From a virus: a stretch of DNA of 64,000 nucleotides. The notes under the pieces were generated by a model, which was not told where the DNA came from, ran no database searches, and was given only the letters and a program-made list of their open reading frames with translations. Of this stretch, positions 8,476 through 47,518 are shown in pieces (positions within the stretch are counted from its first letter, which is position 1; each line of letters starts with the position of its first letter). The translations under genes were made by a program, and so were the position numbers. The stretch lies in IMG/VR virus record IMGVR_UViG_3300045988_177361; one strand, given 5' to 3'.

Positions 8476-8671
8476 GGTGGGGGTATGTCTTTTTGTTTCG
8501 ATGATAACAACGGCGAAAAGTCGGCACGCCGAACCAGAAAACCGTTCGGAGAAACATTCCAGTAAAACAGTTGAACGGCGTACAGGTTTACAGGCGGAAC
8601 AGAAAAACAGAAAGCCGCGTCCGCGATGAAACGGATACGGCCTTCTTTTGTTTTTTATCGCCGAACAAAAA

Positions 8672-9025: not shown

Positions 9026-9128
9026 TTTTCTAATCTCCTTGACGTTGGAAGGTTTTTCGAAAGGGAAACCGGCGTCGAATGCTGTGGAAGATGATTAAAA
9101 CATTCGACGCCGGATGGTCAAACCGACG

Positions 9129-12100: not shown

Positions 12101-13133
12101 TCGTGTTGGCTTTCATCTCCAACACGTGGCAGTAACCTTGCCGGGCGTTTTCCGCGATACGGAACGAGGATGTTCCGGTGGTCTGCGGGTTTCCGTACTG
12201 CATGGTCACGAACGAGCGAAGGGAGGTCTCCTCCCAAATACGGTTGATGGCCTTGGTGATGTTGCTTGTATCCTGATTGCCGTTGGACTTCGCCTGTTCG
12301 TCATACGCCTGATGCATGAAGTACAGGTAATCCTGACAATTGGTTTTCGCACCGTTCGCCGCATGATGGTAGGACATCATGTTTTTATCACTGTCGGACA
12401 TACCGTCAAGGTCGAGGTTGACCGAAAGCTTGTTGATGGTGTTGTTGATTGTCTGCACGACCCACCATGGGCTTCCGGTCGCCGGTTCTGTGGCGTTCTT
12501 TCCGGTCTTGGCCGCTCCAGCTCCAAGCATCGTGATTGAAGCGAAGCAGAGAACCATGATGACGATTCGTTTGCTCGCCTCTTTGACGGTGCCGATTTGG
12601 AATCCAGCCGCGCCAACCCAAGCCACGATGCCGAGCACTGCGATGGTGGCGGGGATACCGCCGTCCATCAGACTCGTCACCATGGTGGACACTGCGGAGT
12701 CGATGTTCGCACCAGCCTGTTTCATCGGTTCGAACGAAGCGGCGAACTGGCTGATGGACAATGCGGAAGACCAGCAGACCTGAGTCAACTGCATCAGAAT
12801 GTTGGGAAGGACGATATGGGTCTGCGAGCTGATGGTCTGCTTGACGTTCGAGAACCAACCGGCGACATCGCTGCCACTGTACGGTTCCGTACGCGAAGTG
12901 ATTTCCCCAACGTAGTTTCCCCAACGTCCGGAAGGAAGACAACTAGAGATGTCTGATGTAGCACTGTCAGTCCCGCCGTTGGCGCATGTTATCGTCGTGG
13001 TCGAATCGTTGACCTGTGCGGCGAACACGCTGGACGGCAAGACGAACAATGTCATGACCACGCACAACATCAGAATGACGAGCAGGTTCCTTCTACCCGC
13101 CCGTTTCACTGGGTCTCGATATTTTGTATTCAA
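9129..13133 (-). CDS. Giant polytopic membrane protein, VirB6/TrbL-like conjugative channel component with a ~640-aa low-complexity cytoplasmic tail
   Basis: 1334 aa. Signal/TM at the N-terminus, a cluster of 3 TMs, a ~350-aa extracytoplasmic loop, then 4 more TMs (VVWGLLSLVLILTKLMLIMMALFLVVTFLV etc.). This matches VirB6/TcpH/PrgH-like topology. The C-terminal half is A/G/Q/P-rich. Confidence 0.5.
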   Translation of the reverse strand: MNTKYRDPVKRAGRRNLLVILMLCVVMTLFVLPSSVFAAQVNDSTTTITCANGGTDSATSDISSCLPSGRWGNYVGEITSRTEPYSGSDVAGWFSNVKQTISSQTHIVLPNILMQLTQVCWSSALSISQFAASFEPMKQAGANIDSAVSTMVTSLMDGGIPATIAVLGIVAWVGAAGFQIGTVKEASKRIVIMVLCFASITMLGAGAAKTGKNATEPATGSPWWVVQTINNTINKLSVNLDLDGMSDSDKNMMSYHHAANGAKTNCQDYLYFMHQAYDEQAKSNGNQDTSNITKAINRIWEETSLRSFVTMQYGNPQTTGTSSFRIAENARQGYCHVLEMKANTNTTIQKDLTNKAMALHISDQRAKWLFSVDGWVDPRNPYFTDKPLERENATYLSRAGVFWETCGTKRNQEIYARAGWATLINNLGDTGTKNIKNGSTKVRVKIDDLDNVKPTNGGKGVMDAKQNGSEDETIQQTTSVCQTILKQGSVIFSRSTDINKEDDGTYKDQQNDTNWGDSATVGWRFDVPNVSGTWSEANLRDAQDDSTVTGGAKKTIDYMYGNNNVDTLGACGTLIGGIVNLVVWGLLSLVLILTKLMLIMMALFLVVTFLVQAFPIGEKPKNALKNWATYTCQLSMVGALYGALGALATFICGLTLKFTSASSGSFTYQLIAGLSPVLAIAAIGMFCSKVLKWGNPFSINALMGMAGGTAMASGLRKGMHMIGQHRMIRAMRGGFRRGGNGVGRLSTNGTGAGMAHNGARQSETVLSKMSRAQQEALSNGDRNLLNRSQSELEAIQSHGRKSRTWARMDANTVRGSLAGTRLHMEKSHDEFRQRLNTAASKFKGADNTEAFAHRIAQRHPGMSPEQVQRRAKMLNHINNDGRKLQAGARALGAGAAMAGAGLAFAARAAKSAPLRNVAARGAKVAAKAAVTGALFSNPITAPLGLIAAGKLAADRNLHHGIAVGAGAAMDKIRDIKNAAPGSMRERAQWRRNMLDMANGDAPLSSSFSGAGDGGSDNGDSPMPSPSAPNPDVPTQTGGAGGASPIPTDGQTETIPVDTPTESVPADAQGQAPVLTEQSAFNQVREGMMADFVDNQHMSQEEAEQAFQEAVSSGEVDNSVQAYMRQNNQSPNENATAQPETNANQPVYNTETGEIVGETLPSGTMDAAVSSASTWQKATDNATPMPESVNNSLQQAYMRENPVQQSPEEHLRMAQEEWTATTGLPGSTMPSGAERAMNPNGIQPSRKFTVDSGQTQQQGSVQAQAPRQQSQPQPQAQVRQQPSVRMQPPTTPSPTVKQPVDANPSNLTGFPSVGNLRMKKPPTGGQPTPKPPFMK

Positions 13134-25854: not shown

Positions 25855-26406
25855 ATGGTCGAAGACACCGTTTGCACCATCGGCGTATATGGTGGCCGAC
25901 AACCGTCCATACTCGTTAATAATCATCTCGTCTACGGTCGGATGCCCGACTCCGAAACCCAGCCGGACATCATCGCGGACGTTCCGAAAGACAGGCTCGT
26001 TGCCAACCTCAACCCAGCCTCCGACGGCATGACGGACAGTCCCAGACTTCCGTTGGAACTGTTCGCCGCATGGCTCGCCAACGGTGACGTGGGCCTCAGT
26101 TCGCTCGCCATCGTACAACGGCTCACCGGAATCACAATGACCGTGAACGGCACGCGCGAACATGGTTGCGAGGATACTCCGAAAGACCCCGGAGACCTAC
26201 GTCGGATACTCGAAATGTTCGACATGGTGCCATCCGCACGCGCCTATCTGAGTCTCATGCGCGACGTGTCGGAAGACTGGAAGAACATCATCGACCATTG
26301 GGACGAACTTGAAAAACAGTATCGGAAAGAGGAACACAATCCATCCGGTTGCGCTCCCAAAACCTACCGGATACTGAAACGATTGAAGGAAGGAAACCAT
26401 GCCTAA
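25855..26406 (+). CDS. Hypothetical protein (183 aa)
   Basis: Tightly packed with its neighbours. No motif recognised. Confidence 0.4.
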   Translation: MVEDTVCTIGVYGGRQPSILVNNHLVYGRMPDSETQPDIIADVPKDRLVANLNPASDGMTDSPRLPLELFAAWLANGDVGLSSLAIVQRLTGITMTVNGTREHGCEDTPKDPGDLRRILEMFDMVPSARAYLSLMRDVSEDWKNIIDHWDELEKQYRKEEHNPSGCAPKTYRILKRLKEGNHA

Positions 26407-28162
26407 CAAAGACATCAAAACCGAACCACGGTTCATGACCATGATTCAAAAAGACCTCCTCCCGACATGCAAGGCGTTGAATCTCGACGTTGACCCGTTC
26501 GCCAACGCGCGAACCGTGTTCATCGACCGTGACAGCGTGGGACGGATTCTCTCCTACATGAGCGACCATGAAATCAACCCCGAATGGTACGGCCTCCTGC
26601 CTGATAATCTGTTCGTCGGAACCGGACTGCCGGTACTCACCGGCGTCGAAGGCGAATACTTCGCACGTATGACCGGACGGAACCTCACCAAGAAAGTCGC
26701 GGCGAAAACATTCATCGCGGACATGGAAGCCTACTGGCTGAGCAAGGACAATCTGAAACGGACTGACGGTACGAAAGGCAACGGAACCACGCTCGGTTTC
26801 GGACGTTGCCCCGGAATGCGTGAGGCCAGCCGATACAACGAACGCATCTTCAAAAGCAACGAATACGAGTACACGAATCCCGTGGACGAGTACGGCATCG
26901 ACACTGTTTCACGCTACCGTCAGGTCGGTGAAATCTACAATGAGGTCGGCCAATGCTTCAAGGGAATGGCACAGGCGCGTACTCCCCTCGCACCATTCGT
27001 CTTCCTCACCCATAAGGAATACGAGGGCGGACTGGACACGGTTGTGAACCACTGCCCATACATCACCCATTCGGACGCCACCCGCATCATCGACGGAATG
27101 AAACAGTTCCCTCCGAAACGAAGCGTGGACAGGTTCATGCTCGCTTTCACCATGACAGCATTCGCGTTCGCCATGAATCAGGTCGAGGAATCCGAACAGT
27201 ACGAGACGGTCGAAGTGAAACCACCGAAAACCGAAATCAGACGGCATTCCGGCACTCCGAAGACCACGTTGCTTATCCATTTGAAACCGGAAGAGCCAGC
27301 ACCCAAGGCCACGCCATCCTATGCCGGTGAAACCGACGAATACGATTGGGACAGCATCACCGGACGGGTCGAAACCATCACACCGGACGTGGCAAGGGAA
27401 ATGCTCGGCTCGAACACCAACAACCGCAACGTGAGCCGCAAACAGGTCGAACTGTTCGCCCGCACCATGGCGCAACAGGCATGGCAGATGAACGGAGAAG
27501 CAATCAAATTCAGCAACACGGGACGTCTGCTGGACGGACAGCACAGGCTCCTCGCCTGCGTCGAATCCGGCGTGCCGTTCCGCACCCTCGTCATCCGTGG
27601 ACTGCCGGAGGAAACACAGGAGACCATGGACGCGGGTAAGACCCGAACCATGGCGAACGTGCTTGAACTGCAAGGACGTTCCAACACGAAACAGCTCGCC
27701 ACCGTCGCCCGTTCCATCTATCTGAGCGAACAACTGGGCGTCGAGGCGGCATGTCTGAACAGCGCTTCCCCGACCCGCAACGAACTGTTGTCTTTCATCG
27801 AGAACACTCCACGATTGGAGGACACGCTACGACAGGCCAGCGCGTTCTATGTGAAAAGCAACCATCTCATGTCCATCAGCATGGCCGCGCTCATCTACTG
27901 GACGTTCTCCGAAATCGACGGGGAGGCGTGCGAAAGGTTCTTCGACATGCTCGCCACCGGCGCGAATCTTGAAGAAGGGAATCCCATCCTCGTGTTGCGC
28001 AACACGCTGTTCGACATCAACAAGCGTGGAGCGCACAGCGACAGGACAAGCCGCCGACGCATCGTCGGAATCACCATCAAAGCGTGGAACAAATGGCGTG
28101 AGGGAGCGACTGTGAAACTCCTCAAATTCTCTCCGAACGAACAGTTCCCGGACGCAATCTGA
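26399..28162 (+). CDS. Protein with a C-terminal ParB/sulfiredoxin-like nuclease domain (587 aa)
   Basis: The C-terminal region contains the ParB-nuclease signature LLDGQHRLLA. The N-terminal ~330 aa is unassigned. It lies two genes upstream of dnaB, suggesting a replication-initiation or loader-like role. Confidence 0.45.
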   Translation: MPNKDIKTEPRFMTMIQKDLLPTCKALNLDVDPFANARTVFIDRDSVGRILSYMSDHEINPEWYGLLPDNLFVGTGLPVLTGVEGEYFARMTGRNLTKKVAAKTFIADMEAYWLSKDNLKRTDGTKGNGTTLGFGRCPGMREASRYNERIFKSNEYEYTNPVDEYGIDTVSRYRQVGEIYNEVGQCFKGMAQARTPLAPFVFLTHKEYEGGLDTVVNHCPYITHSDATRIIDGMKQFPPKRSVDRFMLAFTMTAFAFAMNQVEESEQYETVEVKPPKTEIRRHSGTPKTTLLIHLKPEEPAPKATPSYAGETDEYDWDSITGRVETITPDVAREMLGSNTNNRNVSRKQVELFARTMAQQAWQMNGEAIKFSNTGRLLDGQHRLLACVESGVPFRTLVIRGLPEETQETMDAGKTRTMANVLELQGRSNTKQLATVARSIYLSEQLGVEAACLNSASPTRNELLSFIENTPRLEDTLRQASAFYVKSNHLMSISMAALIYWTFSEIDGEACERFFDMLATGANLEEGNPILVLRNTLFDINKRGAHSDRTSRRRIVGITIKAWNKWREGATVKLLKFSPNEQFPDAI

Positions 28163-31517: not shown

Positions 31518-33212
31518 GTGAAAACCAAAAACCTGTTGAAGGCAACGGTCGCCACGCTTGTGGCCGGTGCCATGGGTTTGGCTGGAGTCGGCTCCGCCAT
31601 GGCGGCTGATACTCGTGTTGACGCATCCAAGCTTGGTGCGGCTGCTCGTCAGACGTTGACCGTCGCTGCTAATGGTGATATTAGCAATCGCACGTTGAAG
31701 GCTGTGCCGCTCGCCTACTATTCGTATGCGCAGACTGATGGTACTAATATTACCGGCTTTGACCTGATTGACGCGGGCAAGGCTTCTGCTATTGCTGACG
31801 CATTGACTAAAGCCAGTATTGACACTAAGTCCAAGAAAGACCAGACTGCCGGATACGACTATAATGCGTCCAATCCGATGGTGTGGGTCGTTCAGAATCT
31901 CCTTGATTCCGAGAACAGTCCGTGGGCTGGCAAGCTTCGTGACTTCATCGACCAGTTGAAGAACGAGGCCGCTGTCACCGGCGACAAGGGCACCGCGTTC
32001 GCCAAGGGCGCCGACGCCAAGCATATGACTGCTTCTGTCCGTCCGGGCGTGTACGCGGTCGTGGACACCACCAAGACCGGTCAGGCGTCCATCGTCATGT
32101 TCAACGGCACCGGCATCGATGGCAAGACCACGTTGAAGAACGGCGCCAAGACCTACACGCTGGGCACCGTGGACTATAAGGTACACGGCACCACCGTCAC
32201 GAAGAAGATTACCGCCGCCGAAAACGGCACCGTCGAAAACAGTGGCGCGACCGCCGAAACCGCTATCGGCAAGAAGGTCAGCTTCGAAATGACCAGCAAA
32301 GTGCCGAACTGGACTGGCTACGACAAGTACTATTACGCCATCAACGATACGTATTCCAAGGGCCTGACTTATGACGCGGCCAAGGACAACATGGTCGTGA
32401 CCGTGGACGGTAAGCCCCTCATCCGCGACACCGATTACAAGGTCACTACTGAGGATGGCAAGTTCCACATCATCTTCGCTCCGACCACCGGTGACTCCAC
32501 CACCGCATCCGACATTGTGGCGATGAAAGCCAAGTTCCCGGTCGATGCCGCCGTTGACGTCAAGTACGGCATGTACGTGAACAAGAACGCCGTCTCCGGA
32601 ACCGCCGACGCCAACACCAACGAGGTCGAATACTCGCATAATCCGAACACCGTCACCGACCATGAGACCACCCCGGGCCAGACCGACAAGGTGCATGTCG
32701 GCAAGTTCACCCTCACCAAGCACGACACGAACAACGTCCCGCTCGCCGGAGCCGAGTTCAAGGTGTACGAGGGCGACCAGACCACCACCCCGGTCAGGTT
32801 CGTCAAGTCCTCCGACGGCCTGACCTACCGCAAGGCCGACCTGACCGAGAGCACCGGCACCACCGACACCGTCACCAGCGTCGCTACTAGCAATGGCGTG
32901 CTCACGCTGACCGGCCTCGACGGCAAGTACACGGTCAAGGAGACAAAGAGTCCGTTCAACGGCTCCATCCTGCCGCAGTTCACCCTGACCATCAAGGTGA
33001 ACCAGTCGAACGGCTCCTACATGCTCAGCCAGTTCGATAAGGACGCCAACAATCTGGCTTCCGAGAACGTCGATAAGATGGGTGTGACCGTCATCAACGC
33101 CCGCAACATCGCCGACATGCCGAAGACCGGTGCGGTCTGGCTGTCCATCTTCGGCGTGATGACCGTCCTGTTGGCTGGCGCTTCCGCCCTGCTGCTTCGT
33201 CGCAAGGCGTGA
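31518..33212 (+). CDS. Sortase-dependent major pilin (isopeptide-bond fimbrial subunit)
   Basis: Signal peptide (LVAGAMGLAGVGSAMAAD). Threonine/valine-rich Ig-like composition. E-box-like motif YTVKETKSPFNG. C-terminal sorting signal PKTG plus a hydrophobic stretch and RRKA. Immediately upstream of a class C sortase. Confidence 0.7.
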   Translation: MKTKNLLKATVATLVAGAMGLAGVGSAMAADTRVDASKLGAAARQTLTVAANGDISNRTLKAVPLAYYSYAQTDGTNITGFDLIDAGKASAIADALTKASIDTKSKKDQTAGYDYNASNPMVWVVQNLLDSENSPWAGKLRDFIDQLKNEAAVTGDKGTAFAKGADAKHMTASVRPGVYAVVDTTKTGQASIVMFNGTGIDGKTTLKNGAKTYTLGTVDYKVHGTTVTKKITAAENGTVENSGATAETAIGKKVSFEMTSKVPNWTGYDKYYYAINDTYSKGLTYDAAKDNMVVTVDGKPLIRDTDYKVTTEDGKFHIIFAPTTGDSTTASDIVAMKAKFPVDAAVDVKYGMYVNKNAVSGTADANTNEVEYSHNPNTVTDHETTPGQTDKVHVGKFTLTKHDTNNVPLAGAEFKVYEGDQTTTPVRFVKSSDGLTYRKADLTESTGTTDTVTSVATSNGVLTLTGLDGKYTVKETKSPFNGSILPQFTLTIKVNQSNGSYMLSQFDKDANNLASENVDKMGVTVINARNIADMPKTGAVWLSIFGVMTVLLAGASALLLRRKA

Positions 33213-33349: not shown

Positions 33350-34255
33350 ATGGGAGGGGTTTTGGGAAAACATACGGCGAAACCGAAAGGCTTGGGAAAT
33401 CGAGCCATAGCGGGACTTCTCTGCCTAATCCTATCCGCCCTGTCCGGAACCATCCCATTCATCCTCATGATTTCGAACAGCAGCCAATCCAACCGGTTGA
33501 CCGACTCCCACGCGCAAGCCGTGGAAAACACTGACGTGAAACGAATCGCCCAAGAGTATGCGGACGCGCAAGCCTACAATCAACGCCTATACGAGGAAGG
33601 CCAGCCCATTCTTGGTGAGGCGGAAGACCCGTGGACGGGCATCAACAAGTCCGAATCGGACAACACGTATCGGAAGCAACTATCCACCCCCAAGGATGGG
33701 GTCATGGCTACCATCAAATATCCACGCTTGGGCATCAACCTGCCTATCCGGCATGGCACGTCGCAAAACGTGTTGGCCGCTGGAGCCGGACACTTATATG
33801 GTTCCAGTCTCCCCGTCGGTGGCAAGAACACGCATACTGTCATATCCGCGCACACGGGTTTGGCAGACCAGCTCATGTTCGACAAGCTGCGAGGATTCGG
33901 CAGTGAAGCCAAAAAAAGTGACGTCTTCTATCTGATAACCGCCGGACATACGCTCGCCTACAAGGTCACAAGCATTGATGTGGTAGACCCATCCGATTTC
34001 ACCAAACTGAAAATCGTCGCCGGAAAAGACCTCGCCACACTCCTAACCTGCACGCCATACGGCATCAACAACAAGCGACTCTTGGTGACCGGCACGCGCA
34101 CCAGCATGCCGCACCCCGCACCCAAACCCGAAAACGCGCCGAAAGACCACACGAACCAATGGCTCATGCTGTACGTCGGCGGATTCTGGCTTGCGGTAAT
34201 CATCATCACCATTCTCATCATCCGTAGAAAAAACCACGCAAAGAAGGAACACTAA
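33350..34255 (+). CDS. Class C (pilus-specific) sortase
   Basis: N- and C-terminal TM segments. Catalytic His region (VISAHTG) and the TLxTC active-site motif (TLLTCTPY). ~300 aa. Its stop overlaps the adhesin start. Confidence 0.85.
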
Positions 34256-37200
34256 TGGGTATTCTCAAAAAGCATGTGGCACATCCGGTAGCATTATTGG
34301 CCGCAATCGCCACACTGGCATCCGGCCTGATATGCATGACCAATCCGGTAGCCTCTCCGAAAGCGCATGCGGACGAGTTGAAACCCGCATATGCTACTGC
34401 GAAAATCGTCAAGAAAGCCGACGGTACGGGGCATGGCACGAGTTCGCAAACGTTCGTGAACTCGAAGAACGGGTTCGCCACGGGCGATGATTCCCCTACC
34501 GATGGCGTGGTCGCATCCGGTGATACGGTCGAATATTCTCTCACATTGAACTTCAACGCGGCGGGCAAGCGTACCATCAACGTGAAGTTCGACTTGGATG
34601 ACGCGCCGTATTTGCAGACTGCTGACGGTGGTGGCTTCTGCCAGCCGGGACAACTCGTCACCGCGAAGAAAAACAGTGACGGCTCCTGCTCCTACACGGT
34701 TCCAGCCGGTGGCGTGGAAACCATGACCCAAACCTTCTATCTGAAAGCAAAAGACACGGGAGGCTTGGTCAAGCCGGGTCAGATTCCGAAAATCGTCGTC
34801 GCCCGCGAAGGTGGAACGTCAACCACGTATCGTACGGATGAGCTGACTGTAGTATCCGCTCCGGCGGCTGACTTGGTCATTGACAATGGCGGCAATCCGG
34901 TGAAAGGCCAATACTCGTATGAGCATCGTACTTATTGGAGTCAGAACACCGACGCGACCGGCGATTTCACTATTCGTACCGACGCGTTGACCTATCCGGG
35001 TTATTCGTCCACCAAAGGCGCATCCACCAGCATCGACTGGACGACCAAGGTTGACATCTCCGATTTTCCGCAGGGAACCGTATGGACTGTTGGGAACCAG
35101 ACGGTCACCCGTAACACGGACAAGACGCAATATCTGACAGTGTCCAGCGGCAAGAACGGTGCGGACACATCCATCAGCTATCGTATTCCAGCCGGAACCG
35201 ACGCGCTCAAAAACATGAAAGAAGGAGACGTCAAATATTACGATGTCCACCTTGTTCCCGACGAAACCGTGTTCAGCGTCAAAGACGATAACGGCAACGC
35301 ACTGTTGAACATGGGCAAGGGCGGCGAACCCGGCTGGAACATTGGACGGGACAAGAGCACCTACAACAAGGATACGGGTGCCCGCGTCGGCTACCCGTAC
35401 GCGAACAATGACTGGTCACGAGCCATCATCCAACGGCTCAAGCCGACTCCAGCTGGCAAGATTCCACTGTTCGGCAAAGGACTGCAACGGCCTAACACTG
35501 CGTCCAAGACCATGTTCGACAAGGAGAATCTGACGTTCGACGCCGCCGAAGGCAAAGCCGACATCTACCATTACTATTCCGACGGTTCCGGCGACACCGT
35601 GTCCCGTGGAACGCAAGTCAAAACCATTTTGGAAATGTATGCGGCGAACGTTACGGCGGACAAGCTTAAAAACACTACGCCGACCATGCAGGACGAGTGG
35701 GATAATACGCGCATGCGGTGGGATGGAAGCTTGGAAGTCACCCAGAACGGCGCTCCGGTTTCCGACTACAAAGTTCAATGGGCTGATAGCAAAGACAATT
35801 GGCATGACGGGGAACCATCCGACACAGACGCTCCGAACGTCAAGAAGATTCGGGTGACGTTCAACCCAGACACTTTGACTTTGGGAAAGGGTGCGCCGAA
35901 CGTTCAGGTCACGTTCAACACGCTCGCCATAGTCGACGTGTCCAAAGGCAATGTGGAAGCTTTGGATACGCTGACCGCATGGCTTACCGAAGACGATAAG
36001 GCGAGCGTCACCAATTGGGTGTGGATTGCCAAGCCGGTAGACCCGACCACCAGTATCGACATCAGTCTGAAAGCCTACGATGGTGAAGGCAATCAAGTGT
36101 ATGCGAACAACAGTTCCAATCACCCGTCCGGAAGCGCAGTCGATTTGACTCCCGGCATGCGAGTGGATTATACGGTCACGGAACAGTTGCGCACCATTCT
36201 CCTGTCCAATACAAGCATGACGCCGACCATCACGGTGCCGAAACCGAAAGGCTTGTACAATCCGACCTGTGATGATTCGTTCTGGCAGATGAAAGTGGAC
36301 GGGAATAATCTCGTGTTCACGCCACGTTCCGGCAAAGTCACTCCGGAAGTAGACCGTATAGGGTCGGCCACTTTGCCTGACCTGCATTTCAGTGGCATCG
36401 TATCCAATCTCGCCACCGGGACTGTGACCGCCAGTGCGAATATGAGCGTGGCCGTTGACGAGAATGGCGCATTGCAAGCCCAAACCATCAAAAGCAATAC
36501 GCCCAGCGTCCCATTCCCTGTCTCCAATGCTGAGACCAACAGTGGCATCATGCGTGTGAAGACCACGAAGGCTGAAATCGGCGACCCGCTTACTTGGGAG
36601 TTCAACGTGTACGGCAAGGGCGGCGGACATACCGGCACCATGGATAGCATGCTACTGCTTCCTGCGAATGGTGATGAGAAGTACGTGCAGGACAAGCTGG
36701 TCGAATATGAGCGTGGATACAGCAACTATCATGGCTCCTACGAACTGACCCAGCCCGTCACGGTCAATATGGACAATTCGACCAGTACGACCGTCTACTA
36801 TTCAACCACCACCGGAAAGAAGTCGGATAATCCGGCTGACTACGAGTGGAAGACATGGGATGAATTGTCCGCCATCGAGAAGAAGAACATCACCGCCATC
36901 CGACTGACCAGCACTGTCGTCGCGTCCGACGATAAACTGTCCTATTCGGCGGTGAACGGTATTATCACGCTCACCCCATCCGACAATGTGAAAGACGACA
37001 AGTACACGCTGTGGCTTGGCCGTAACTATTATTCCGACGCTTCCGACAAACCGGCGGGCAACCAGCCGTGGCCTGACGTGGCGAAGGTAGTGGCCGGTAG
37101 CATCAGCGGCACCGTCTGGTGGGATAAGGATGAGAACACGCTCATCGGTGACAGTGAGGAACGTATCGAAGGAGTGGAAGTCACCCTCGGCAAGCAGGAT

Positions 37201-39633
37201 TCAAGCGGCGGCTGGCAGACCGTCAAAACGGTGAAAACCGATAAGGACGGCTACTATGAGTTCGTACTGCTCCACTCCGGCACTTACAAGACTTCGGTGA
37301 AACGCAACACCGGCACCACCACCAGTGACGGCGTGCAGACACAAGTCAAAACCTACTACGGCAAGGTCGAAAACGTGACGAACACGCGAAGCTGGTCGAA
37401 CAAAATCAAAGCGAACGCGAAAGACACGTCCGACAATATCAGCTTGGGCATCGGCATCGACCAGAAAAACGTGGACTACGGGTATGCGAAACCAGACCCG
37501 AAAGCCACCGTGGACAAAACCGTCCCCGGCACCAAATGTACTGATACGAAATGCGTCATCAACTGGGATGTCAAAGTACAAAACAAAGGCACTAGTCGTT
37601 TTGATACTTCCAGTGTCGTTTCTGACCGTATGAGCGCCGACGTGCATGATGTTTCCGCTACCGCCGGTACGGTTTCTATCGAGTCTGGTGGTGCGAAGCA
37701 GGTTGCGACGAGTGGCGACCATAAGTTTGTGTTGACGAGCGAGGGCTTGTTGTATGCGTGGGGTAATAACCAGTATGGTCAATTAGGTTTCAAGCCTGAC
37801 TCCACGAACACGAGTACTCCGGTGAACGTGAACAAGCCGACCATGGTCAACGGTAGTTGGCTGAAAGTCGCCGCCGGTGGCAAGCATTCCGCCGCCATCA
37901 GCACGGACGGACACTTGTACACGACTGGTTGGAATGGTAAAGGCCAATTAGGTACGGGTGATACGGACAATCGTTTCGAATGGACGGAAGTCGCTTCGGA
38001 TAAGACGTTCACGGACGTGGCATGCGGCAACCAGTTCACCGTCGCCATCGCCAGCGACGGAACTTTGTGGGGTGTTGGAAACGCTGTAGGCAGTCAGAAC
38101 TATGCGGCTTGGACGCAAATCGGTTCTGGTGTCAAGTTCACTCAACTCAGTGCGAGCATGGAAGGTTTCATCGCCTTGAACACGTCCGGCGGATACCTGT
38201 ACTCCGGTACAGGCGTTTCCTTGGGACAGCTTTCCAGTGGCGGTTACACGCAAGTCGCCGCCGCGTTTGGTCAAATGTACGCGTTAAAAGACGATGGGAC
38301 GGTGTTCTGGTTCTCGACCTATAGTGCTACCTTGTCCGGTTTGAAGGACATTGTGAAAATCAGCGGCGGATACAATACCCTGTACGCCATCGACAAGAAC
38401 CAACACTTGTGGGCCTCAGGCTGGAATGGTGACGGACAATTGGCGAACGGCAAGACCGGCAACGGCATGTATTGGACGAACGGCTCCACCGGTAACAACA
38501 CGGACGTCATCGGCACGCCAGTCGATACGGGCATCATCGCATCCGACGTGGCGGGTGGCGACCGTGACGTGCTCATTCTTGGCAAACAGGTCATGATTGC
38601 GGGCTTCGACCCGTATGGTGACGGTAAGACGGGTGGCGCGCGTTCCACCGGTTTGAAAGGTATGGCGGTATCGTCCGACCCAACCGCCGTACCGGTCGAG
38701 CCATCGAGCGAAACCACTGAGAATGGGTTGACTACTCGCACGTATAATCTGCCGTATGCGATTGAGCCGGGCGGTTATGTCATCTACCATTTCACCGGCA
38801 CAGTTGACCGTGAGACCGCTGACATGACAGGCAAAGACCAGTCGTACATTGACGAGTGGGTTAAGAAGAATACGAAGACCATTCTCAACCAAGCATGGTT
38901 CGACTCCGAACACACACCATACTCGGGCACGCCACACGCAATCGGCAAAACCACGCCGAACACTCCGGACGCTACGAAACTGGACACCAACACGAATGAT
39001 GTGACCGGCAATCCGACCTGCCGCACCGACACCGACTATACGGAGGAAGGACGCCAACACTGGTTCAGCACGTCCGACGAGGACTCCTGCGACCAAGTCG
39101 GCACCATCATCACCCCAACCACAACCGCGAAGAACCTCGGTTCCATCAGCGGCCTGTACTGGGAGGACACCAACAAGAACGGCATCCAAGATGAAGGTGA
39201 GAACACGCATTTCGCCGGTCAGACGGTCATTCTGACTGACGAGAACGGCAAACAGTTGGCAACCACCAAGACCGACGAGGATGGCAAGTACATTTTCGAA
39301 CGTCTGGACGCGAACGGCAACAAATACCGTATCCAATTCACCAAAGTGAACCACCGGGACTTCACCACGCCGGATGCGGGAGACAAGACCCCTGCGACGG
39401 GTGAAAGCTCCACCGATTCAGATGCTTACACGGACGAAGACAACAAGCTGACCATTACCCTCACCCAAGATGCTCCAACCAAGGAGCATGTGGATGCGGG
39501 TGTCCTGCCTGAAACATGGTTGGCGACCATGCCGCACACAGGCATGGGATTGCTGTTGCCGCTCCTCATGCTCGTCAGCATCAGCGGACTCGTCACGGCA
39601 ATCATCCTCCTACGAAAGAAGGAAGAACAGTGA
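34255..39633 (+). CDS. Giant LPxTG-type surface adhesin / probable pilus tip protein with RCC1-like beta-propeller repeats and Cna-B/SdrD-B type domains (1792 aa)
   Basis: Signal peptide. At least two Cna-B/SdrD-like domains ([28 protein letters not shown]...DKDGYYEF and [35 protein letters not shown]...DGKYIFE). ~7 RCC1-type repeats ([51 protein letters not shown]). C-terminal PHTG sorting signal plus TM plus RKKEEQ. Confidence 0.7.
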
Positions 39634-39644
39634 AAGGAACAAGA

Positions 39645-40577
39645 ATGGGCAAACACGCCACACAATCACACGGGAGCTGTCACATGGTTCGGCGGCTCCT
39701 CGCCACTCTCGCCATCATGAGCGCGGTCTGCGGCGGCTTCCTCACCGGTAGTGCGGTAGCCGCCGAACCAGCCAAATGCAATACCGGCGTGGACAAGGTT
39801 TGCTACGCGGGCTATAACGCGGCGGGTTTGAAACAGATTGCCGACGATTTGAGCGAGAAAGGTAGGGGAAGCACATACTATGCCGCAATGGAAAAGAACC
39901 TGACCGACGGGGTCAAAGGCACGCTCACCCTATCGGACGGCTCGAACCTCCCATTCCGACTCATCGGCATCCTCCACGACGACAAAGCCGACGGAAGTGG
40001 ACGGAAAGCAGGATTGACGTTCATGGCTTGGAACGCGTTACCGAAAGCGTATGCCATGAACAATAGTTACACCAATAGGGGCGGCTGGCGTGACAGTCTT
40101 CTTCGCAATCAGATGAACAATGGTGAAATCTGGAACCAATTCCCCACGGACTTCCAAAACAATGTCACACCCGTGTTGAAACAAACCAACAACATGGCAT
40201 ACGGAAGTTCATCCGGTTCAAGCGCGTCAGCCACAGCGGACAAAGTATGGCTCGTCTCCTACCGTGAACTCGTGTCCACTATGTATGACGGTTGGAAGAC
40301 CTACGGTGGTTTTCAAGCGTGGAGTCAGGAGGGAAGTCAATACGAGTACTTCAGCGGCAAGGTGACGAACAACTATTCGGGTAATGGCATTCTCTCCGGC
40401 ATTTACAAAACCGTTTCCGGTTCCACTCCTCTTGGTGCTGGCTACGACGGTTGGTGGGAGCGTTCGCCCTACCCGCACCGCAGCAACTATTTCCTCCAAG
40501 TGTACTCGAACGGCGACCCCAGCTACTACAGCTATGCTGACTATCGCTACTCCGTTGTCCCCGCTTTCTCCTTCTAA
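39645..40577 (+). CDS. DGR target (variable) protein: a secreted protein whose C-terminal ~55 codons form the variable repeat
   Basis: RBS-supported ATG at 39645 (MGKHATQSHGSCHMVRRLLATLAIMSAVCGG...: signal peptide). The 3' end (40410-40575) is a near-copy of the TR at 41210-41375. It differs only at TR adenines and is followed by a GC hairpin. C-terminal sequence ...GWWERSPYPHRSNYFLQVYSNGDPSYYSYADYRYSVVPAFSF. Confidence 0.7.
   Translation: MGKHATQSHGSCHMVRRLLATLAIMSAVCGGFLTGSAVAAEPAKCNTGVDKVCYAGYNAAGLKQIADDLSEKGRGSTYYAAMEKNLTDGVKGTLTLSDGSNLPFRLIGILHDDKADGSGRKAGLTFMAWNALPKAYAMNNSYTNRGGWRDSLLRNQMNNGEIWNQFPTDFQNNVTPVLKQTNNMAYGSSSGSSASATADKVWLVSYRELVSTMYDGWKTYGGFQAWSQEGSQYEYFSGKVTNNYSGNGILSGIYKTVSGSTPLGAGYDGWWERSPYPHRSNYFLQVYSNGDPSYYSYADYRYSVVPAFSF
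40410..40575 (+). repeat. DGR variable repeat (VR) including the 3' IMH-like segment
   Basis: 166-bp alignment to 41210-41375 at a constant offset of 800 bp. 13 substitutions in the body, every one at a position where the other copy has A (inside AAC/AAT codons). The last ~12 bp (ctttctccttc versus attcctcttac) diverge, as expected for IMH versus IMH*. Confidence 0.8.
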
Positions 40578-40590
40578 TCCTCTAATCCTT

Positions 40591-40617
40591 GGTGGGTGGG
40601 GTTCATCCCCACCCACC
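40591..40617 (+). other. Perfect GC-rich hairpin immediately 3' of the VR (candidate DGR target-recognition hairpin/cruciform)
   Basis: ggtgggtgggg-ttcat-ccccacccacc: 11-bp perfect stem, 5-nt loop, 14 nt after the target-gene stop. Absent downstream of the TR copy. Confidence 0.6.
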
Positions 40618-40651
40618 ATCCCAAAGCTGAAACTTACAAAAAGGAAGTCTT

Positions 40652-41167
40652 ATGACGGTTCCCGCAAGCAAACGTACCAAGGCCAGAAGCGAATATGCTA
40701 ATCAGGCAAGAATCGTGCTCTTGGCTACCAGAAATCTTTTCCGCAAATGGCCTAAAAGCCGTAACTGTCTCGAAACCGTGCATGTCATGCATATCGCCTA
40801 CGAAATGTATTCATCCGCCTACAGTGCCGACATCATTTATGCAAGCACTGTAGAAGAGCATGAGATGAAACTGCAACTGTTGTGCAAGGCTCAAGGCATG
40901 TTGAATTCGCTTTCCGGTCTTGTGGACGATTGGATGGAGTTTCCTCCACGGGAAAAAGACTTGGAAGCCTACAGGAAATATCCGGAAGGCGACCCCAGAT
41001 ACAATCCCGTCGTCAAGGAGAAGAAATTCGTGAACTATGCGGGAACCCTCTACAAGGCGATGGGCGTGTTCACCGGAGCCGTCAAGTATGAGCGAGACCA
41101 GTTGAAGAAAGCTAAAAACGCCGAGTCGAAAACGAACACTATAATGGATACTCGGGCGCAAGCCTAA
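40652..41167 (+). CDS. DGR accessory variability determinant (Avd)-like protein, putative (171 aa)
   Basis: Small helical basic protein encoded between the VR and the TR, the canonical avd position. Helix-rich sequence (ANQARIVLLATRNLFRKW..., ...LLCKAQGMLNSLSGLV). Longer than the classic ~130-aa Avd. Confidence 0.45.
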   Translation: MTVPASKRTKARSEYANQARIVLLATRNLFRKWPKSRNCLETVHVMHIAYEMYSSAYSADIIYASTVEEHEMKLQLLCKAQGMLNSLSGLVDDWMEFPPREKDLEAYRKYPEGDPRYNPVVKEKKFVNYAGTLYKAMGVFTGAVKYERDQLKKAKNAESKTNTIMDTRAQA

Positions 41168-41209
41168 AATATAATTGAACAAAATCGGCCATATCCAAAC
41201 TATGGTGGC

Positions 41210-41375
41210 ACCGTTTCCGGTTCCACTCCTCTTGGTGCTAACTACAACGGTTGGTGGGAGCGTTCGCCCAACCCGAACAACAACAACAATTTCCTCCAAG
41301 TGAACTCGAACGGCGACCCCAGCTACAACAACAATGCTGACTATCGCTACTCCGTTGTCCCCGATTCCTCTTACC
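41210..41375 (+). repeat. DGR template repeat (TR), non-coding
   Basis: Non-coding copy of the target 3' end, carrying 10 AAC/AAT triplets at the positions where the VR has GGC/GAC/TAC/CAC/CGC/AGC/TAT. This adenine-specific pattern is the DGR hallmark. It lies between avd and the RT gene, with a ~260-nt spacer before the RT gene. Confidence 0.8.
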
Positions 41376-41633
41376 AAAAACTAACATCAGATAGGCCAGT
41401 AGCCCAATGGGTGAAAGCCTCCCGAAGGGGAAGGGGATATGGTCGAATGCGCGGCCCCTCGAAAAATGGGTTGCGTGTGAAATAGGTTGAGGGAGATATT
41501 AAGACTGTCGGAAACGACGGATACTCGCCCCTTAAGCTGGGCGTCCAACATCATTGCATGTCTTGGGTTGTTGCCGACGACCTGCCCCCAACCATTCTTT
41601 TCTCTTTCCCCTAGTGAAGGAAGCATTAAAATC

Positions 41634-42788
41634 GTGAATGCGAGTCAAAGACGTAGAAGACGCCAACGCAGACTGCAACAACGCTCGGACGATAAGTACA
41701 GGAAGCTCCACCGTTACATCGACTTCCAACAAACATTCGGATTCGACGCGCTCTACCAAGCCGCAAGAAAATGCAAACGCGGCGTCACGTGGAAAAACAC
41801 AGTGTTGAACTTCGACAATAGGCGTGCCGTCAACTGTTGGAAACTCGCCCAAGAATTGGAGGACGGCACATACAAGAAGAGAGCGCCAATCCGATTCGAC
41901 ATTTCCGAACGTGGCAAGCTTCGCCATATCAGCGCGGTCTCATTCCGAGACCGGGTGGTGCAACGCGCTCTGTGCGATAACAGTCTTGTACCCATCGTGG
42001 AAAGCCAACTGATATATGATAATGCGGCGAGCCTTCCGAAACGTGGAACATCGTTCGCCCGAAAACGGTTTGAACTACACTATAAGCGAGCTTTGGGTAA
42101 ATGGGAGCATCCGTATGCTGTCATATTCGACTGTTCCAACTATTTCGGCAGTATCAGCTCCCAACGCGCGTTCGATATGATTTCCACCCTGTACCGGAGC
42201 ATCGCCCGCACCGGACGGGAGAAGCAGGATGTGGAACGGATTCTAACCGTATTGAGAATCTTCGTATTGGACGAACCTCACTTAGGTTTAGGTAATCAGA
42301 CGAGCCAAACCATGGCTATCTGGTATTTGAACAAGGTTGACCACTGGTGCATGTCGCAAGGATTCTACGGACGGTATATGGATGATGCCTACTGTTTCTG
42401 CGAGAATCGTGAACAGGCCGAACGTGTGCTGGCCGGTTACGAGCGGCGTGTCAATCAATTGGGATTGCGGTTGAACAAGCATAAGACCCGCATAGTGGAC
42501 TGTCATACCGGTCAACTCACATTCCTGAAACGCGTATACAGCGTACAGGATGACGGCAGTATTCTTATCCGCATGCACCATAAGGCGTTGCGTGCAAGCC
42601 GACGGCATGCGCGTAACCTTATCCGCTCATATGATGGCGTGCATGTGGGATTGCGGACAGTTCAGGATTCTTGGACGAGCCATGAGAGCACACTGTCGGG
42701 TCTAACTCACCGTCGTGGACTGTGCGCTCGGGAGAAAGCGTGGTATCGGAGGCATTGTGAAATGCGGAAGCTGGCTTTTCACCCGTGA
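41634..42788 (+). CDS. DGR reverse transcriptase
   Basis: RT motifs: RDRVVQRAL (motif 2), the YGRYMDDAY catalytic box (YxDD), and the DGR-type LGNQTSQTMAIWYL motif, where group II intron RTs have QGxxxSP. ~385 aa from the ATG at 41634; the longer ORF from 41487 uses a non-ATG start. Confidence 0.85.
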   Translation: MNASQRRRRRQRRLQQRSDDKYRKLHRYIDFQQTFGFDALYQAARKCKRGVTWKNTVLNFDNRRAVNCWKLAQELEDGTYKKRAPIRFDISERGKLRHISAVSFRDRVVQRALCDNSLVPIVESQLIYDNAASLPKRGTSFARKRFELHYKRALGKWEHPYAVIFDCSNYFGSISSQRAFDMISTLYRSIARTGREKQDVERILTVLRIFVLDEPHLGLGNQTSQTMAIWYLNKVDHWCMSQGFYGRYMDDAYCFCENREQAERVLAGYERRVNQLGLRLNKHKTRIVDCHTGQLTFLKRVYSVQDDGSILIRMHHKALRASRRHARNLIRSYDGVHVGLRTVQDSWTSHESTLSGLTHRRGLCAREKAWYRRHCEMRKLAFHP

Positions 42789-44779: not shown

Positions 44780-46000
44780 CTAGTTCTCCGAGCGTTCGCT
44801 GATATTCTCCCGCATCTGCAAATAAGCCCCATGCTCACGCAAGTAATCCCGCAAATACGGCATTTTGAAAGCGACTTCACCGTAACCGACAGGCTCAATC
44901 AAATCGTTCTCAATCAGCTTGGTTCTATACACGTTGGCGAACTGCGGCGAACGGTTCAACCGACGGGCGATTTCACCTGTATTCGACACCGTATCATCCA
45001 CCGACATGGCAAGCAGATAGTTCACCGCATGAGAAGGCAAGCCATGCAATGCTGGGGCGTGAACCATATCCCCTAGTTTGGCTTGGGCTTTTTCGATACC
45101 CTTGACCGCGTCCTCCTCGGTCACTTGATTCACATGACCGTTGGTTTCGGAAACCCTCCAAGCCCAATAACCCACCAGCTGAATCATGAACGGATAACCA
45201 TGAGTGGCATTGGTCAACCGTATCAACGTTTCCATCCCGGCTTTCTTCTCCCCGCTGAAAGACTCCTCGAATGCTTTCAGAACCTTCTCCGTTGGCACGG
45301 AACCCAAATGATACCGTTCTGCCCGTTGAAGGAAGGTGATGGCATTATCCGACAGCACGTCGTTCACGGCGGACGGTAGCCCAGCGAAAATGAACGCGAT
45401 GTTCCGTCCTTCGCGGATAAGATGTTGCACGGCAGTGGACAAAGCCCTGATTTCGTCCATGGAACCGGATTGCACTTCGTCCAATGTGATGAGAATGCCC
45501 TGCTTGCTTTCATTTATCTTGTCCAAACGTTTGCCGACCGCTTGACGTAGCGTCAAGGAACGTTCCTCATTGTGTTCGAGTTCGATTCTCCCCAAACTCA
45601 GTTCCAGATTCCCTACATCACCTTTCAATCCGACGCTAGGCATGTCGTAGGCGGATATGCGAGTCGTGTCCTTGCCGGTAAGTGCGTCCACCAGTCTTTG
45701 GGTGAAACCTCTATCGGCGCTTTCGTTATAGACTTTCCAGCCTTGCTTTTGCGCGTGTGTTCCTAACGTGTCCAGCATGACTGTTTTTCCTACGCCTCTG
45801 GCTCCGGTGAGGAACATCAGCCGTCCGGGGCTTCCTACACCGTCTTTCAGCGCATAGTCGAAGTCTTCGATGATTTCTTCTCGTCCGACGAGTATCGGTG
45901 GGATACGTCCGGCGGTTGGTTTGAATGGGTTGGTCATGTCTGTTTCCTTGATTTTATAATAATTATAATAAGTATAATACTTTAAAAAAGCATGTACCAA
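44780..46000 (-). CDS. AAA-type ATP-binding protein with a C-terminal winged-helix domain (ORC/Cdc6-like STAND/AAA fold)
   Basis: Walker A MFLTGARGVGKTVMLDTLG. Walker B ILITLDEVQ. A C-terminal ~90 aa HTH-like region (RLNRSPQFANVYRTKLIENDLIE). 406 aa. Confidence 0.6.
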   Translation of the reverse strand: MVHAFLKYYTYYNYYKIKETDMTNPFKPTAGRIPPILVGREEIIEDFDYALKDGVGSPGRLMFLTGARGVGKTVMLDTLGTHAQKQGWKVYNESADRGFTQRLVDALTGKDTTRISAYDMPSVGLKGDVGNLELSLGRIELEHNEERSLTLRQAVGKRLDKINESKQGILITLDEVQSGSMDEIRALSTAVQHLIREGRNIAFIFAGLPSAVNDVLSDNAITFLQRAERYHLGSVPTEKVLKAFEESFSGEKKAGMETLIRLTNATHGYPFMIQLVGYWAWRVSETNGHVNQVTEEDAVKGIEKAQAKLGDMVHAPALHGLPSHAVNYLLAMSVDDTVSNTGEIARRLNRSPQFANVYRTKLIENDLIEPVGYGEVAFKMPYLRDYLREHGAYLQMRENISERSEN

Positions 46001-46540: not shown

Positions 46541-46638
46541 ACGATTCCGTAACAGTACTCTTCCTTCCCTTATAGGTTGGAGGGGTTTGTTTTTTCGGAG
46601 GTTGTTTATAGTTTTTTGGGTGTGTCGTTTTTCGTACG

Positions 46639-46667
46639 CTGTATACTGGGATTGTTCACACAAAGAG
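46639..46667 (+). promoter_or_regulatory. Conserved promoter/leader motif, copy 2
   Basis: ctgtatactgggattgttcacacaaag. The ATG of the next gene lies 26 nt downstream. Confidence 0.65.
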
Positions 46668-46693
46668 ATAAAAGAAAAACCAAGGAGCAAGAA

Positions 46694-47518
46694 ATGAGCA
46701 ACATCGACAGCATCATCGAACGCATCAACAACCTCATGGCAATAGCCGAAAACGAAGCATCCAGCGACAATGAGGCGCAAATGGCGTTCGAGCGGGCACA
46801 GAAACTCATTAACGAATATCGTATCGAAGACTGGAAACGCGACCGCACCCGCACGAACAAGCCAATCATCGAACGTGGCGTGAACGTAAGCAAAACCACC
46901 ATCTACCATCAGCAAGGCTACCTTGCGACCATCATCGCCCAAGCTAACGAATGCCGCGCCTACCTTCACGAAAGCCGGTGTAGCGGAAGGATTGAGGAAC
47001 GTGCCGTCATGTTCGTAGGCGAGGAAGATGATGTGAACGCCGCAGTCATTCTCTTCCAAAGCATCGACCTATACTGCTCAGTCCACGCCCGCACTAGCTA
47101 CGCGGACATGATTGACCAGCACGCCAAAGCGTACTATGAGGACAACAAGGAATACGTCGAAACGCATTACGGACGTGAATCCTATCCGACGCTGACGGAA
47201 TGCAAACAGTACATGCGTCGTGATTATCCACGCGCCAAGTTCTACTATGGTTATCGCGGTGGATTCAACGAACGTTTGAGCGAACGTTTCGAGGAGCTTC
47301 GCAAGCAGAGTCTCGCCATTCCTTCCGGTCGTGAGCTGGTGTCATGCAAGAGTCAGCGTCTGAACGAGTATTTTGACAAGCTTGAGCTGGTGTCGGGTCG
47401 TGCGGCCACTGCTCGTGGTAGCAAGGATGGTTTTGCCCGTGGTGTGAGTGACGCGAACAATGTGGGTTTGGGTTTGTCTGAAATGGGTGTTTCGTCCCAC
47501 GCTTTGCTGAATGCCTGA
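46694..47518 (+). CDS. DUF2786-like protein (274 aa), common in conjugative plasmid leading regions
   Basis: The N-terminus IIERINNLMAIAENEASSDNEAQMAFERAQKLINEY matches the DUF2786 helical signature (KLLALAEST..NEAEAA...A..L). Followed by a hairpin terminator at 47524-47566. Confidence 0.5.
   Translation: MSNIDSIIERINNLMAIAENEASSDNEAQMAFERAQKLINEYRIEDWKRDRTRTNKPIIERGVNVSKTTIYHQQGYLATIIAQANECRAYLHESRCSGRIEERAVMFVGEEDDVNAAVILFQSIDLYCSVHARTSYADMIDQHAKAYYEDNKEYVETHYGRESYPTLTECKQYMRRDYPRAKFYYGYRGGFNERLSERFEELRKQSLAIPSGRELVSCKSQRLNEYFDKLELVSGRAATARGSKDGFARGVSDANNVGLGLSEMGVSSHALLNA

Follow-up and report, generated by a model that had tools for sequence, protein, structure and literature searches.

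The DNA analyzed here is a stretch of 64,000 nt (the window) from the IMG/VR virus record IMGVR_UViG_3300045988_177361. An earlier reading of the sequence (the original prediction) had placed a complete diversity-generating retroelement (DGR) of canonical architecture at positions 39645-42788. All parts of such an element are present on the plus strand. A target gene encoding a secreted DUF6273 protein carries the variable repeat (VR) at its 3' end and is followed by a hairpin, an accessory gene, the template repeat (TR), a spacer and a reverse transcriptase (RT) gene, and the mismatches between the two repeats are specific to TR adenines.

Template and Variable Repeats

A repeat search of the window identified a direct repeat of 168 nt (40410-40577 and 41210-41377, plus strand) with a spacing of 800 nt and an identity of 89%. 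The upstream copy contains the VR (40410-40563, plus strand), which corresponds to codons 256-306 of the target, with 14 nt between its end and the stop codon of the open reading frame (ORF; 310 aa). The downstream copy contains the TR (41210-41363, plus strand), a non-coding stretch of 154 nt in the intergenic region between the accessory and RT genes that is rich in AAC and AAT, contains 38 adenines and codes for asparagine (AAC or AAT) at 14 out of 51 codons. A base-by-base comparison of this 154-nt core revealed exactly 13 mismatches, and the TR base is an adenine in all 13. The VR carries G at six of these sites, T at five and C at two. With 38 adenines among the 154 nt of the TR core, the chance that all 13 mismatches fall at an adenine is ~1.3e-8.

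The two repeats had originally been described as 166 bp long and identical except at 13 positions, each with an adenine in the TR. Both statements hold for the 154-nt core, but the 166-nt span contains 18 mismatches, and the five additional ones all lie within its last 12 nt (40564-40575 compared with 41364-41375). Three of these five (TR base first: A>C, C>T, T>C, A>T, C>T) are at TR bases other than adenine. The end mismatches mark the limit of homology, as at the initiation of mutagenic homing sites (IMH and IMH*) of known DGRs, and leave the adenine rule within the repeat proper unbroken. No further VR was found on either strand of the window when the TR was searched with any base allowed at its adenine positions.

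Natural Variation among Related Loci

Related loci were collected by exact-protein look-ups and by a scan of IMG/VR, and originate from many independent gut metagenomes. A total of 38 loci, representing 34 unique VR/TR pairs and including three more distant relatives, were chosen for the comparison of each VR with its own TR. The per-site VR diversity was taken from the DNA of the 38 loci; the cluster-representative proteins gave only three close full-length sequences. Across the 34 unique pairs the mismatches remain adenine-specific: 617 out of 636 (97%) fall at a TR adenine and 19 at another base, which corresponds to differences at 46% of the adenine sites vs 0.5% of the non-adenine sites. 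The substitutions from the TR consist of 367 A>G, 207 A>T and 43 A>C changes. Heterogeneity of the VR at TR-adenine sites, on which the original prediction depended, is thus present in related sequences, with 34 distinct VRs among the 38 loci, and all 43 adenine positions of the consensus TR vary in the VR (18 unique 154-nt pairs).

Ten loci were compared with the window segment by segment. Identity is 99.9-100% in the 700 nt of the target gene before the VR, 99.8-100% between the end of the VR and the TR (accessory gene included) and 98.3-100% in the spacer and RT, whereas the VR is only 82-93% identical. Near-identical flanks around a VR of this divergence imply many homing events on a very recent time scale. 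Furthermore, the TR occurs in length alleles of 151, 154 and 157 nt that derive from the gain or loss of AAC codons, and the length of each VR always equals that of its own TR, which is what copying from TR to VR predicts. Taken as a whole, the between-sample VR diversity on near-identical backbones argues strongly, if indirectly, for ongoing mutagenic retrohoming.

The TR is itself polymorphic (25 distinct TRs in the 38 loci), with more between-sample variation than its flanks show. Relative to the window, loci L006, L008 and L024 include length alleles of the TR and alleles that add adenines (TAC>AAC, GGT>AAT). Eroded TRs were found in L001 (10559-10712) and in L023, whose TR follows the start of the accessory gene (4001) by ~550 nt; relative to the common TR they have lost 13 and ~9 adenines, respectively (A>G/T/C). 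The VRs of these two loci share the changes of their own TR and carry more at the remaining adenines. It looks as if mutagenized complementary DNA (cDNA) or the VR itself overwrote part of the template, with an assembly chimera as a possible alternative.

Variable Repeat Boundary and Hairpin

The homology between TR and VR breaks at 40564 in the VR copy and at 41364 in the TR copy. The IMH-like 3' boundary of the VR (40560-40577, plus strand, CCCGCTTTCTCCTTCTAA, stop codon included) is retained in divergent DGR relatives and in the chromosomal relics described below, with a single C/T variant in L036. A hairpin with a GC-rich 12-bp stem and the 5-nt loop TTCAT begins 13 nt past the target stop codon (40590-40618, plus strand; arms 40590-40601 and 40607-40618), one base pair longer than the perfect 11-bp hairpin that had been noted at 40591-40617. 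It folds as DNA with -17.7 kcal/mol (z = -5.0 vs shuffles) and is not followed by a T-run. Among the 38 loci, six versions of the stem were identified, four fully complementary and two with one mismatched end pair, and the loop is constant. In an alignment of four lineages, 2 out of 12 pairs are changed on both sides and 97.6% of the cells pair, compared with 61-71% when the partner is slid by 1-3 columns. By analogy with the Bordetella phage DGR, this structure is probably a target-recognition hairpin or a cruciform.

Spacer and RNA Duplexes

The TR is followed by a non-coding RNA element (spacer, Sp) of 270 nt that reaches to the RT gene (41364-41633, plus strand), close to the ~260 nt originally estimated for the spacer behind a non-coding TR. 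Conserved blocks are found in this spacer across relatives whose RTs are 50-82% identical. Two duplexes connect the spacer to the TR region. The TR is bracketed by a duplex in which the 5' arm at 41185-41196 (plus strand, TCGGCCATATCC) pairs at 12 out of 12 positions with the 3' arm at 41435-41446 (plus strand, GGATATGGTCGA), an analogue of the avd:Sp "cPRT Stop" duplex. A direct pairing table shows one compensatory pair in L029 and four in L030, and the helix is also present in the minimum free energy fold. In the other, TR:Sp duplex, the IMH*-like 3' end of the TR (41359-41372, plus strand, CCCC-GA-TTCCTCTT) pairs at 12 out of 12 positions, with a GA bulge, with a G-rich segment of the spacer (41425-41436, plus strand, AAGGGGAAGGGG), the candidate primer strand. 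This duplex is retained in five lineages with 4 out of 12 pairs changed on both sides (TTCCCCT/AGGGGAA, TCTCTCC/GGAGAGA and TTTCCCC/GGGGAAA by lineage). The comparison covered the loci with a recognizable TR within 700 nt upstream of the RT, which leaves out L031, L032 and L034. Since the fold of the whole spacer is no more stable than that of shuffled sequences (z -0.8), the argument for the RNA rests on covariation and not on energy.

Both types of duplex were solved for the Bordetella phage system, and 207 out of 278 Avd-type DGRs are predicted to contain them (bioRxiv 10.1101/2023.10.23.563531); the TR:Sp duplex is likened to the template:primer duplex of the Bordetella phage system described in that work. 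By this analogy, cDNA synthesis would begin beside the TR:Sp duplex at ~41358, which fits with the end of TR/VR identity at 41363.

TATAAT hexamers occur at 41140-41145 and 41170-41175. The second follows the accessory stop codon by 3 nt and precedes the 5' arm of the TR-bracketing duplex by 10 nt, and could represent a dedicated promoter of the TR-spacer RNA. It was not called by the consensus promoter scan, as a good -35 element is absent, and the scan for promoter and terminator consensus sequences around the DGR found no excess of sites over shuffles.

Reverse Transcriptase and Accessory Protein

The RT gene (41634-42788, plus strand) encodes a 384-aa protein with a Pfam RVT_1 domain. The GTG at 41634 is the likely start codon because the reading frame upstream of it differs between close relatives. 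In line with the motifs originally listed for this protein (YMDD and the DGR-specific LGxxxSQ), the sequence contains LGNQTSQ (42288-42308) and an intact YMDD (42375-42386). Its best match in the PDB is the Bordetella phage DGR RT (bRT; 8ub7_A, E 1e-13), to which it is 30% identical over 240 aa (E 9e-18). In a tblastn search against plasmids, the best matches listed are cyanobacterial RTs, the top one of which overlaps an annotated DGR avd gene, and no Bifidobacterium plasmid is found among the matches listed or the ten commonest organisms. A scan of the GTDB representative genomes for the RT returned no relative.

The accessory gene (40652-41167, plus strand) lies between the target and the TR and encodes a protein of 171 aa with an isoelectric point of 9.4. 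Its structural model is a confident four-helix bundle (predicted local distance difference test score, pLDDT, 86.9), and the basic protein is modeled with the Avd fold. The description of this gene as small, helical and avd-like agrees with the model; at the sequence level no similarity to Avd was detected. Neither the protein nor 19 of its relatives matched Pfam or NCBIfam, phmmer found no match in the PDB, and an hhalign comparison of the accessory profile with the Avd of phage BPP-1 gave a probability of 0.2%, which places the protein outside the Avd sequence family (Pfam 23S_rRNA_IVP / four-helix-bundle). An exhaustive HMMER search identified only 28 relatives among 1.84 billion representative proteins, and a word-indexed homologue search recovered close relatives only.

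Target Protein and Pilus Operon

The target gene (39645-40577, plus strand) encodes a protein of 310 aa; an ATG at 39684 that is also used by gene callers would yield 297 aa. The protein belongs to the Pfam family DUF6273 (E 2.6e-14). Its N-terminus contains a signal-peptide-like segment without a canonical lipobox, consistent with the original description of the VR as the 3' end of a gene for a secreted protein. Inspection of the sequence found neither an xPxTG sorting motif nor a C-terminal membrane anchor, the C-terminus being the VR itself. An AlphaFold2 model based on 37 homologues (pLDDT 83.5; predicted template modeling score, pTM, 0.82) indicates a C-type-lectin-like fold on which the variable residues are displayed, as had been proposed for the varied C-terminal segment. 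The target does not itself qualify as a pilin subunit: the protein lacks a sorting signal and an anchor, and its predicted fold is lectin-like and not pilin-like. Binding of immunoglobulin A (IgA) was considered and rejected: the sole solved DUF6273 domain belongs to an IgA peptidase, yet it is dispensable for catalytic efficiency, and the authors of that study ascribe IgA recognition to the catalytic core alone and not to the DUF6273 domain.

The target is the fourth and last gene of an operon on the plus strand. The three genes upstream encode a backbone pilin (31518-33212; Pfam GramPos_pilinBB and SpaA; C-terminal MPKTG, hydrophobic stretch and basic tail), a pilus sortase (33350-34255; Pfam Sortase, E 1.2e-20; TLLTC active-site motif) and a wall-anchored adhesin of 1792 aa (34255-39633; SdrD_B, RCC1/RCC1_2/WD40_RLD and SpaA-like domains; MPHTG sorting signal). 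This combination of a backbone pilin, a pilus-type sortase and a large adhesin, with sorting signals, is that of a sortase-dependent pilus operon. The target starts 11 nt past the end of the adhesin gene, directly behind a pilus adhesin as originally reported, and the same adhesin gene is located upstream of the DUF6273 gene in every related locus. Within the adhesin, SdrD_B and SpaA-type stalk domains are joined to an RCC1-type beta-propeller, and its sorting motif MPHTG is unusual (the pilin uses MPKTG). The gene context suggests a role for the variable protein in ligand binding, in association with the pilus or at the cell surface, with a specificity that the DGR varies. The original prediction had also raised a possible link of this specificity to conjugation or colonization. 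The link to conjugation found no support and a conjugation-linked function was rejected, as the operon also occurs in chromosomes with no conjugation genes nearby; the link to the pilus operon itself is the stronger one.

Relatives and Relics

The order of target, hairpin, accessory gene, TR, spacer and RT is kept in more distant relatives with RT identities to the window of 82% (L027/L028), 67% (L029), 51% (L030) and 50% (L033). Three additional loci (L031, L032 and L034) with RTs that are 39-47% identical are located on more AT-rich contigs, have no adjoining DUF6273 gene, and represent either a different layout or orphan RTs. In L034 the RT is followed by a gene for a 2303-aa RCC1 protein.

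The four-gene operon was also identified in a chromosomal setting. In Bifidobacterium moukalabense (L035; GCA_005405785.1, 745-kb contig, 881-10242) it is located amid housekeeping genes, gpsA and ddl among them, and L036/L037 carry the same four genes. The adhesin and DUF6273 genes of these copies share an overlap of 14 nt. The VR, the IMH-like end and the hairpin, with compensatory changes in the stem, are retained, the accessory ORF is truncated to its first 66-88 codons (88 or 66 aa), and TR and RT are absent from all three operon copies. The copies are relics of the same DGR, and their VR is frozen. The chromosomal operon and the relics argue that the DUF6273 protein is integral to the pilus operon and that the association with the DGR is ancestral in the group and not a chance insertion.

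Replicon and Host

Several proteins of the window match records of Bifidobacterium adolescentis in NCBI and UniRef, including the accessory protein (MFR9090014.1) and a DnaB-type helicase. A gene for a RepA_C replication protein (6167-7177) adjoins one for ParA (7771-8475) in the Pfam scan, and the DnaB helicase is also encoded in the window. Many samples contain the same genes on contigs of 216-234 kb, as does the assembly GCA_039754515.1, and the partition protein of the plasmid is indexed in >1000 blocks of a metagenome collection. Three backbone proteins are shared with the pMP7017 family of plasmids. The best database match of RepA is a pMP7017-family protein with 35% identity. An 886-aa protein without a Pfam domain (14168-16828, minus strand) is 58.7% identical over its full length to a pMP7017-family protein annotated as "AAA family ATPase" or "Yip1 family"; to the type IV secretion coupling proteins that actinobacterial plasmids encode, its identity is 27%. 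A ParB-like protein of 587 aa (26399-28162) is 54% identical to a plasmid protein of the family, and its C-terminal half matches PHROG 5931 (E 8e-73), with ParB-like nuclease-domain homologues in actinobacteriophages. Based on its gene content, the replicon appears to be a B. adolescentis megaplasmid of ~216-234 kb that is of the pMP7017 type and distantly related to pMP7017, in agreement with the original view of the element as plasmid-borne rather than phage-borne. At the nucleotide level, the DGR (3.1 kb) and 24 kb around it had no match among the PLSDB plasmids or the INPHARED phages. The IMG/VR loci L038-L052 (up to 217 kb) are labelled viral, although the backbone genes in the window are of plasmid type (RepA, ParA, coupling-protein-like, pMP7017 homologues).

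The left end of the window encodes a GlfT2-like galactofuranosyltransferase (159-2219, minus strand), a protein with choline-binding repeats (2368-3192) and an IS21 insertion sequence (IS) pair (istB 3270-4031 and istA 4028-5581, minus strand). Beyond RepA, other contigs instead carry numerous small ORFs together with a GmrSD_C protein and one of 426-459 aa. This difference (1-5600) points to a rearrangement mediated by IS21, to cargo or to a junction of the assembly. IS200/IS605-family elements (Y1 transposase, OrfB/TnpB) are inserted at differing sites near the DGR and parA between samples (L001 12559-13776, L022 6495-8318, L012, L013 and L015), a scatter that marks the plasmid as an active landing site. 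A 1334-aa ORF without a Pfam domain (9129-13133, minus strand) varies in length between 1293 and 1337 aa across contigs. The region downstream of the DGR (46577-47518 and on to 64000) is filled by numerous small ORFs in series on one strand, nearly all of them without a family match; the exceptions are DUF2786/DUF7168 and a divergent AAA_16 / STAND-like ATPase (44780-46000, minus strand). A tRNA scan of the window found none.

Alternative Explanations

Overall, the element is very probably a canonical and currently active DGR that varies a secreted DUF6273 protein of a pilus operon on a B. adolescentis megaplasmid. Several observations weigh against this interpretation. The VR diversity is between samples, and no diversification within a population was seen directly. 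Nineteen mismatches lie at non-adenine bases, as would be expected from ordinary drift or from a change of the TR after the last homing event. The TR:Sp registers were chosen for best pairing in purine/pyrimidine-rich sequence from five lineages, it is synteny that associates the target with the pilus, and IMG/VR lists contigs of this element as viral, a label that is mistaken or else hints at phage-like genes beyond the window. The last point bears on the possibility that the element resides on a jumbo phage or a phage-plasmid and that the variable protein is a phage receptor-binding protein. DUF6273 proteins are indeed known as DGR targets from Faecalibacterium phages, 15 IMG/VR loci with 98-99% identical RTs lie on contigs of up to 217 kb with a viral label, and the ParB-like protein has its PHROG match. 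A phage is nevertheless very unlikely. RepA_C and ParA are adjacent, the best matches of the RepA, 886-aa and ParB-like proteins are in a plasmid family that is experimentally conjugative, and scans of 34 window proteins with Pfam and of 10 with PHROGs, in 64 of the ~220 kb, detected no family of capsid, terminase, portal or tail proteins. In addition, translation links the target to a sortase-pilus operon, and this operon is also found in Bifidobacterium chromosomes among housekeeping genes.

It is very unlikely that the DGR in the window is a frozen relic with intact-looking parts and that the VRs of different samples diverged long ago. The window has an intact RT, an intact accessory ORF and an intact TR with 38 adenines, the contrast between the VR and flanks that are 99.9-100% identical requires many recent homing events, and VR length tracks the TR length alleles; these observations outweigh the existence of relics without TR or RT in L035 and L036/L037 and the count of 13 changes in the VR of the window, which is lower than in most relatives (16-26). 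Ordinary mutation combined with diversifying selection or recombination, next to an unrelated RT of a group II intron, a retron or a defence system, would be hardly credible as the source of the VR hypervariability, because no model of selection or recombination predicts that 97% of the differences fall at TR adenines. NCBIfam does report similarity of the RT to group II intron RT/maturases (88.5 bits vs a cut-off of 300) and to Drt and retron RTs, but every one of these matches is below the cut-off. An Rfam scan of the window found nothing, neither the RNA of a group II intron nor that of a retron, the protein matches DGR RTs best both in structure and among plasmids, and the DGR-specific [LIV]GxxxSQ motif is present.

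Proposed Mechanism and Implications

In a currently active DGR with the observed anatomy, adenine pattern, VR diversity, folds and RNA covariation, an RNA that spans the end of the avd-like gene, the TR and the 270-nt spacer would fold by pairing of 41185-41196 with 41435-41446, and the TR 3' end (41359-41372) would pair with the G-rich spacer segment (41425-41436). The RT and the Avd-fold accessory protein would then copy the TR into cDNA with misincorporation opposite adenines only; both priming in cis and adenine mutagenesis by this RT are expected from its homology with the Bordetella phage DGR. The cDNA would replace the VR at the 3' end of the target, and, again by homology with the Bordetella phage system, the IMH-like boundary and the downstream hairpin would direct homing. 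As an outcome, ~20 codons that are AAC or AAT in the TR would be randomized on the C-terminal face of the C-type-lectin-like DUF6273 domain. A more far-reaching interpretation combines a DUF6273 lectin that is a working component of the pilus (e.g., docked on the RCC1 propeller of the adhesin), programmable adhesion and an Avd lineage of divergent sequence confined to these elements of the Actinomycetota. This combination is put forward tentatively and is on balance doubtful.

Bifidobacterium adolescentis is a species of the adult gut that is dominant there and associated with health, and in which the attachment and persistence of strains are poorly understood. A widespread plasmid of this species carries a mutagenesis machine whose sole target is a secreted, lectin-like product of a pilus operon, and a different variant is produced in almost every sample examined. 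The system provides a tractable Gram-positive example in which the purpose of cellular, non-phage DGRs can be addressed, natural covariation data for RNA elements that were recently solved in the Bordetella phage system, and a natural series of relics that shows how such elements decay. If the variable protein does act with the pilus, a very common megaplasmid would provide its host with programmable adhesion to host glycans, mucus, IgA or other microbes, and would represent a Gram-positive counterpart of the Bacteroides Type V pilus DGRs.

Comparison with Known Systems

The mechanism and anatomy are not new and are those of the prototype DGR of Bordetella phage BPP-1 (mtd-avd-TR-brt). Both elements share the order of a target with a 3' VR, an accessory gene, the TR, a spacer and the RT, adenine-specific TR/VR differences, and a boundary of TR/VR divergence followed by a hairpin after the VR. 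They also share RTs with the same motifs and 30% identity, an accessory protein with the Avd fold according to the model, and variable residues on a fold of the C-type-lectin type. In contrast to BPP-1, where a phage varies the tip of its tail fibre, the element described here is carried by an apparent Gram-positive megaplasmid and varies a secreted protein of a pilus operon. Its accessory protein is larger (171 aa compared with 128 aa for the BPP-1 Avd) and has no detectable sequence similarity to it; an Avd fold without a recognizable Avd sequence, as modeled here, goes beyond a routine DGR. The spacer is longer (~270 nt vs ~140 nt), and the TR:Sp duplex contains a GA bulge and directly abuts the stop duplex.

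Among cellular DGR targets, TvpA of Treponema denticola and LdtA of Legionella are lipoproteins. Unlike these, the target in the window has a signal peptide without a canonical lipobox, and its core domain family, DUF6273, is a different one. Gut phages already provide published examples of DUF6273 as a DGR target of the C-lectin-like kind (PMC10743442; bioRxiv 10.1101/2024.10.15.618418). These "tentaclins" and Mtd-like proteins contain the same Pfam domain, are C-lectin-like by structure prediction and, in the Toutatisvirus targets, carry the VR at the C-terminal end of the domain with the TR located between the accessory gene and the RT. They are structural or receptor-binding proteins of phages of the Bacillota, in contrast to the cellular or plasmid-encoded product of a pilus operon in the Actinomycetota described here.

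The plasmid pMP7017 of B. breve and related megaplasmids of B. longum are experimentally conjugative (PMC10832533, PMC8313286). The replicon in the window shares with this family the genus, the size class (169-198 kb vs ~216-234 kb) and homologous RepA, 886-aa and ParB-like proteins, and differs by the absence of nucleotide-level similarity and by its host, B. adolescentis. A tblastn search of plasmids with the DUF6273 target returned no match in a Bifidobacterium plasmid. DGRs of Bifidobacterium are on record from prophages (PMC8705816) and from a global catalogue, and no paper that joins Bifidobacterium, a megaplasmid and a DGR was found in a literature search. The setting in a Gram-positive sortase-pilus operon, on a prevalent and apparently undescribed megaplasmid, is the new aspect of this DGR and also goes beyond the routine.

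The pilus-tip DGRs of Bacteroides (bioRxiv 10.1101/2024.11.15.621889) also reside in a gut commensal, on a mobile element that is not a phage and in association with a pilus operon (there encoding a Type V pilus), and vary a C-terminus of the C-lectin type, with VR haplotypes that differ between hosts. The terms Bifidobacterium, sortase and Gram-positive are absent from that study, in which the sole actinobacterial mention is an infant-enriched group of Actinomycetota DGRs. In Bacteroides, variation affects a pilus protein itself, a homologue of Type V pilins in a Gram-negative pilus, whereas the protein varied in the window is a separate, unanchored DUF6273 protein encoded directly after the tip adhesin of a sortase-dependent pilus.

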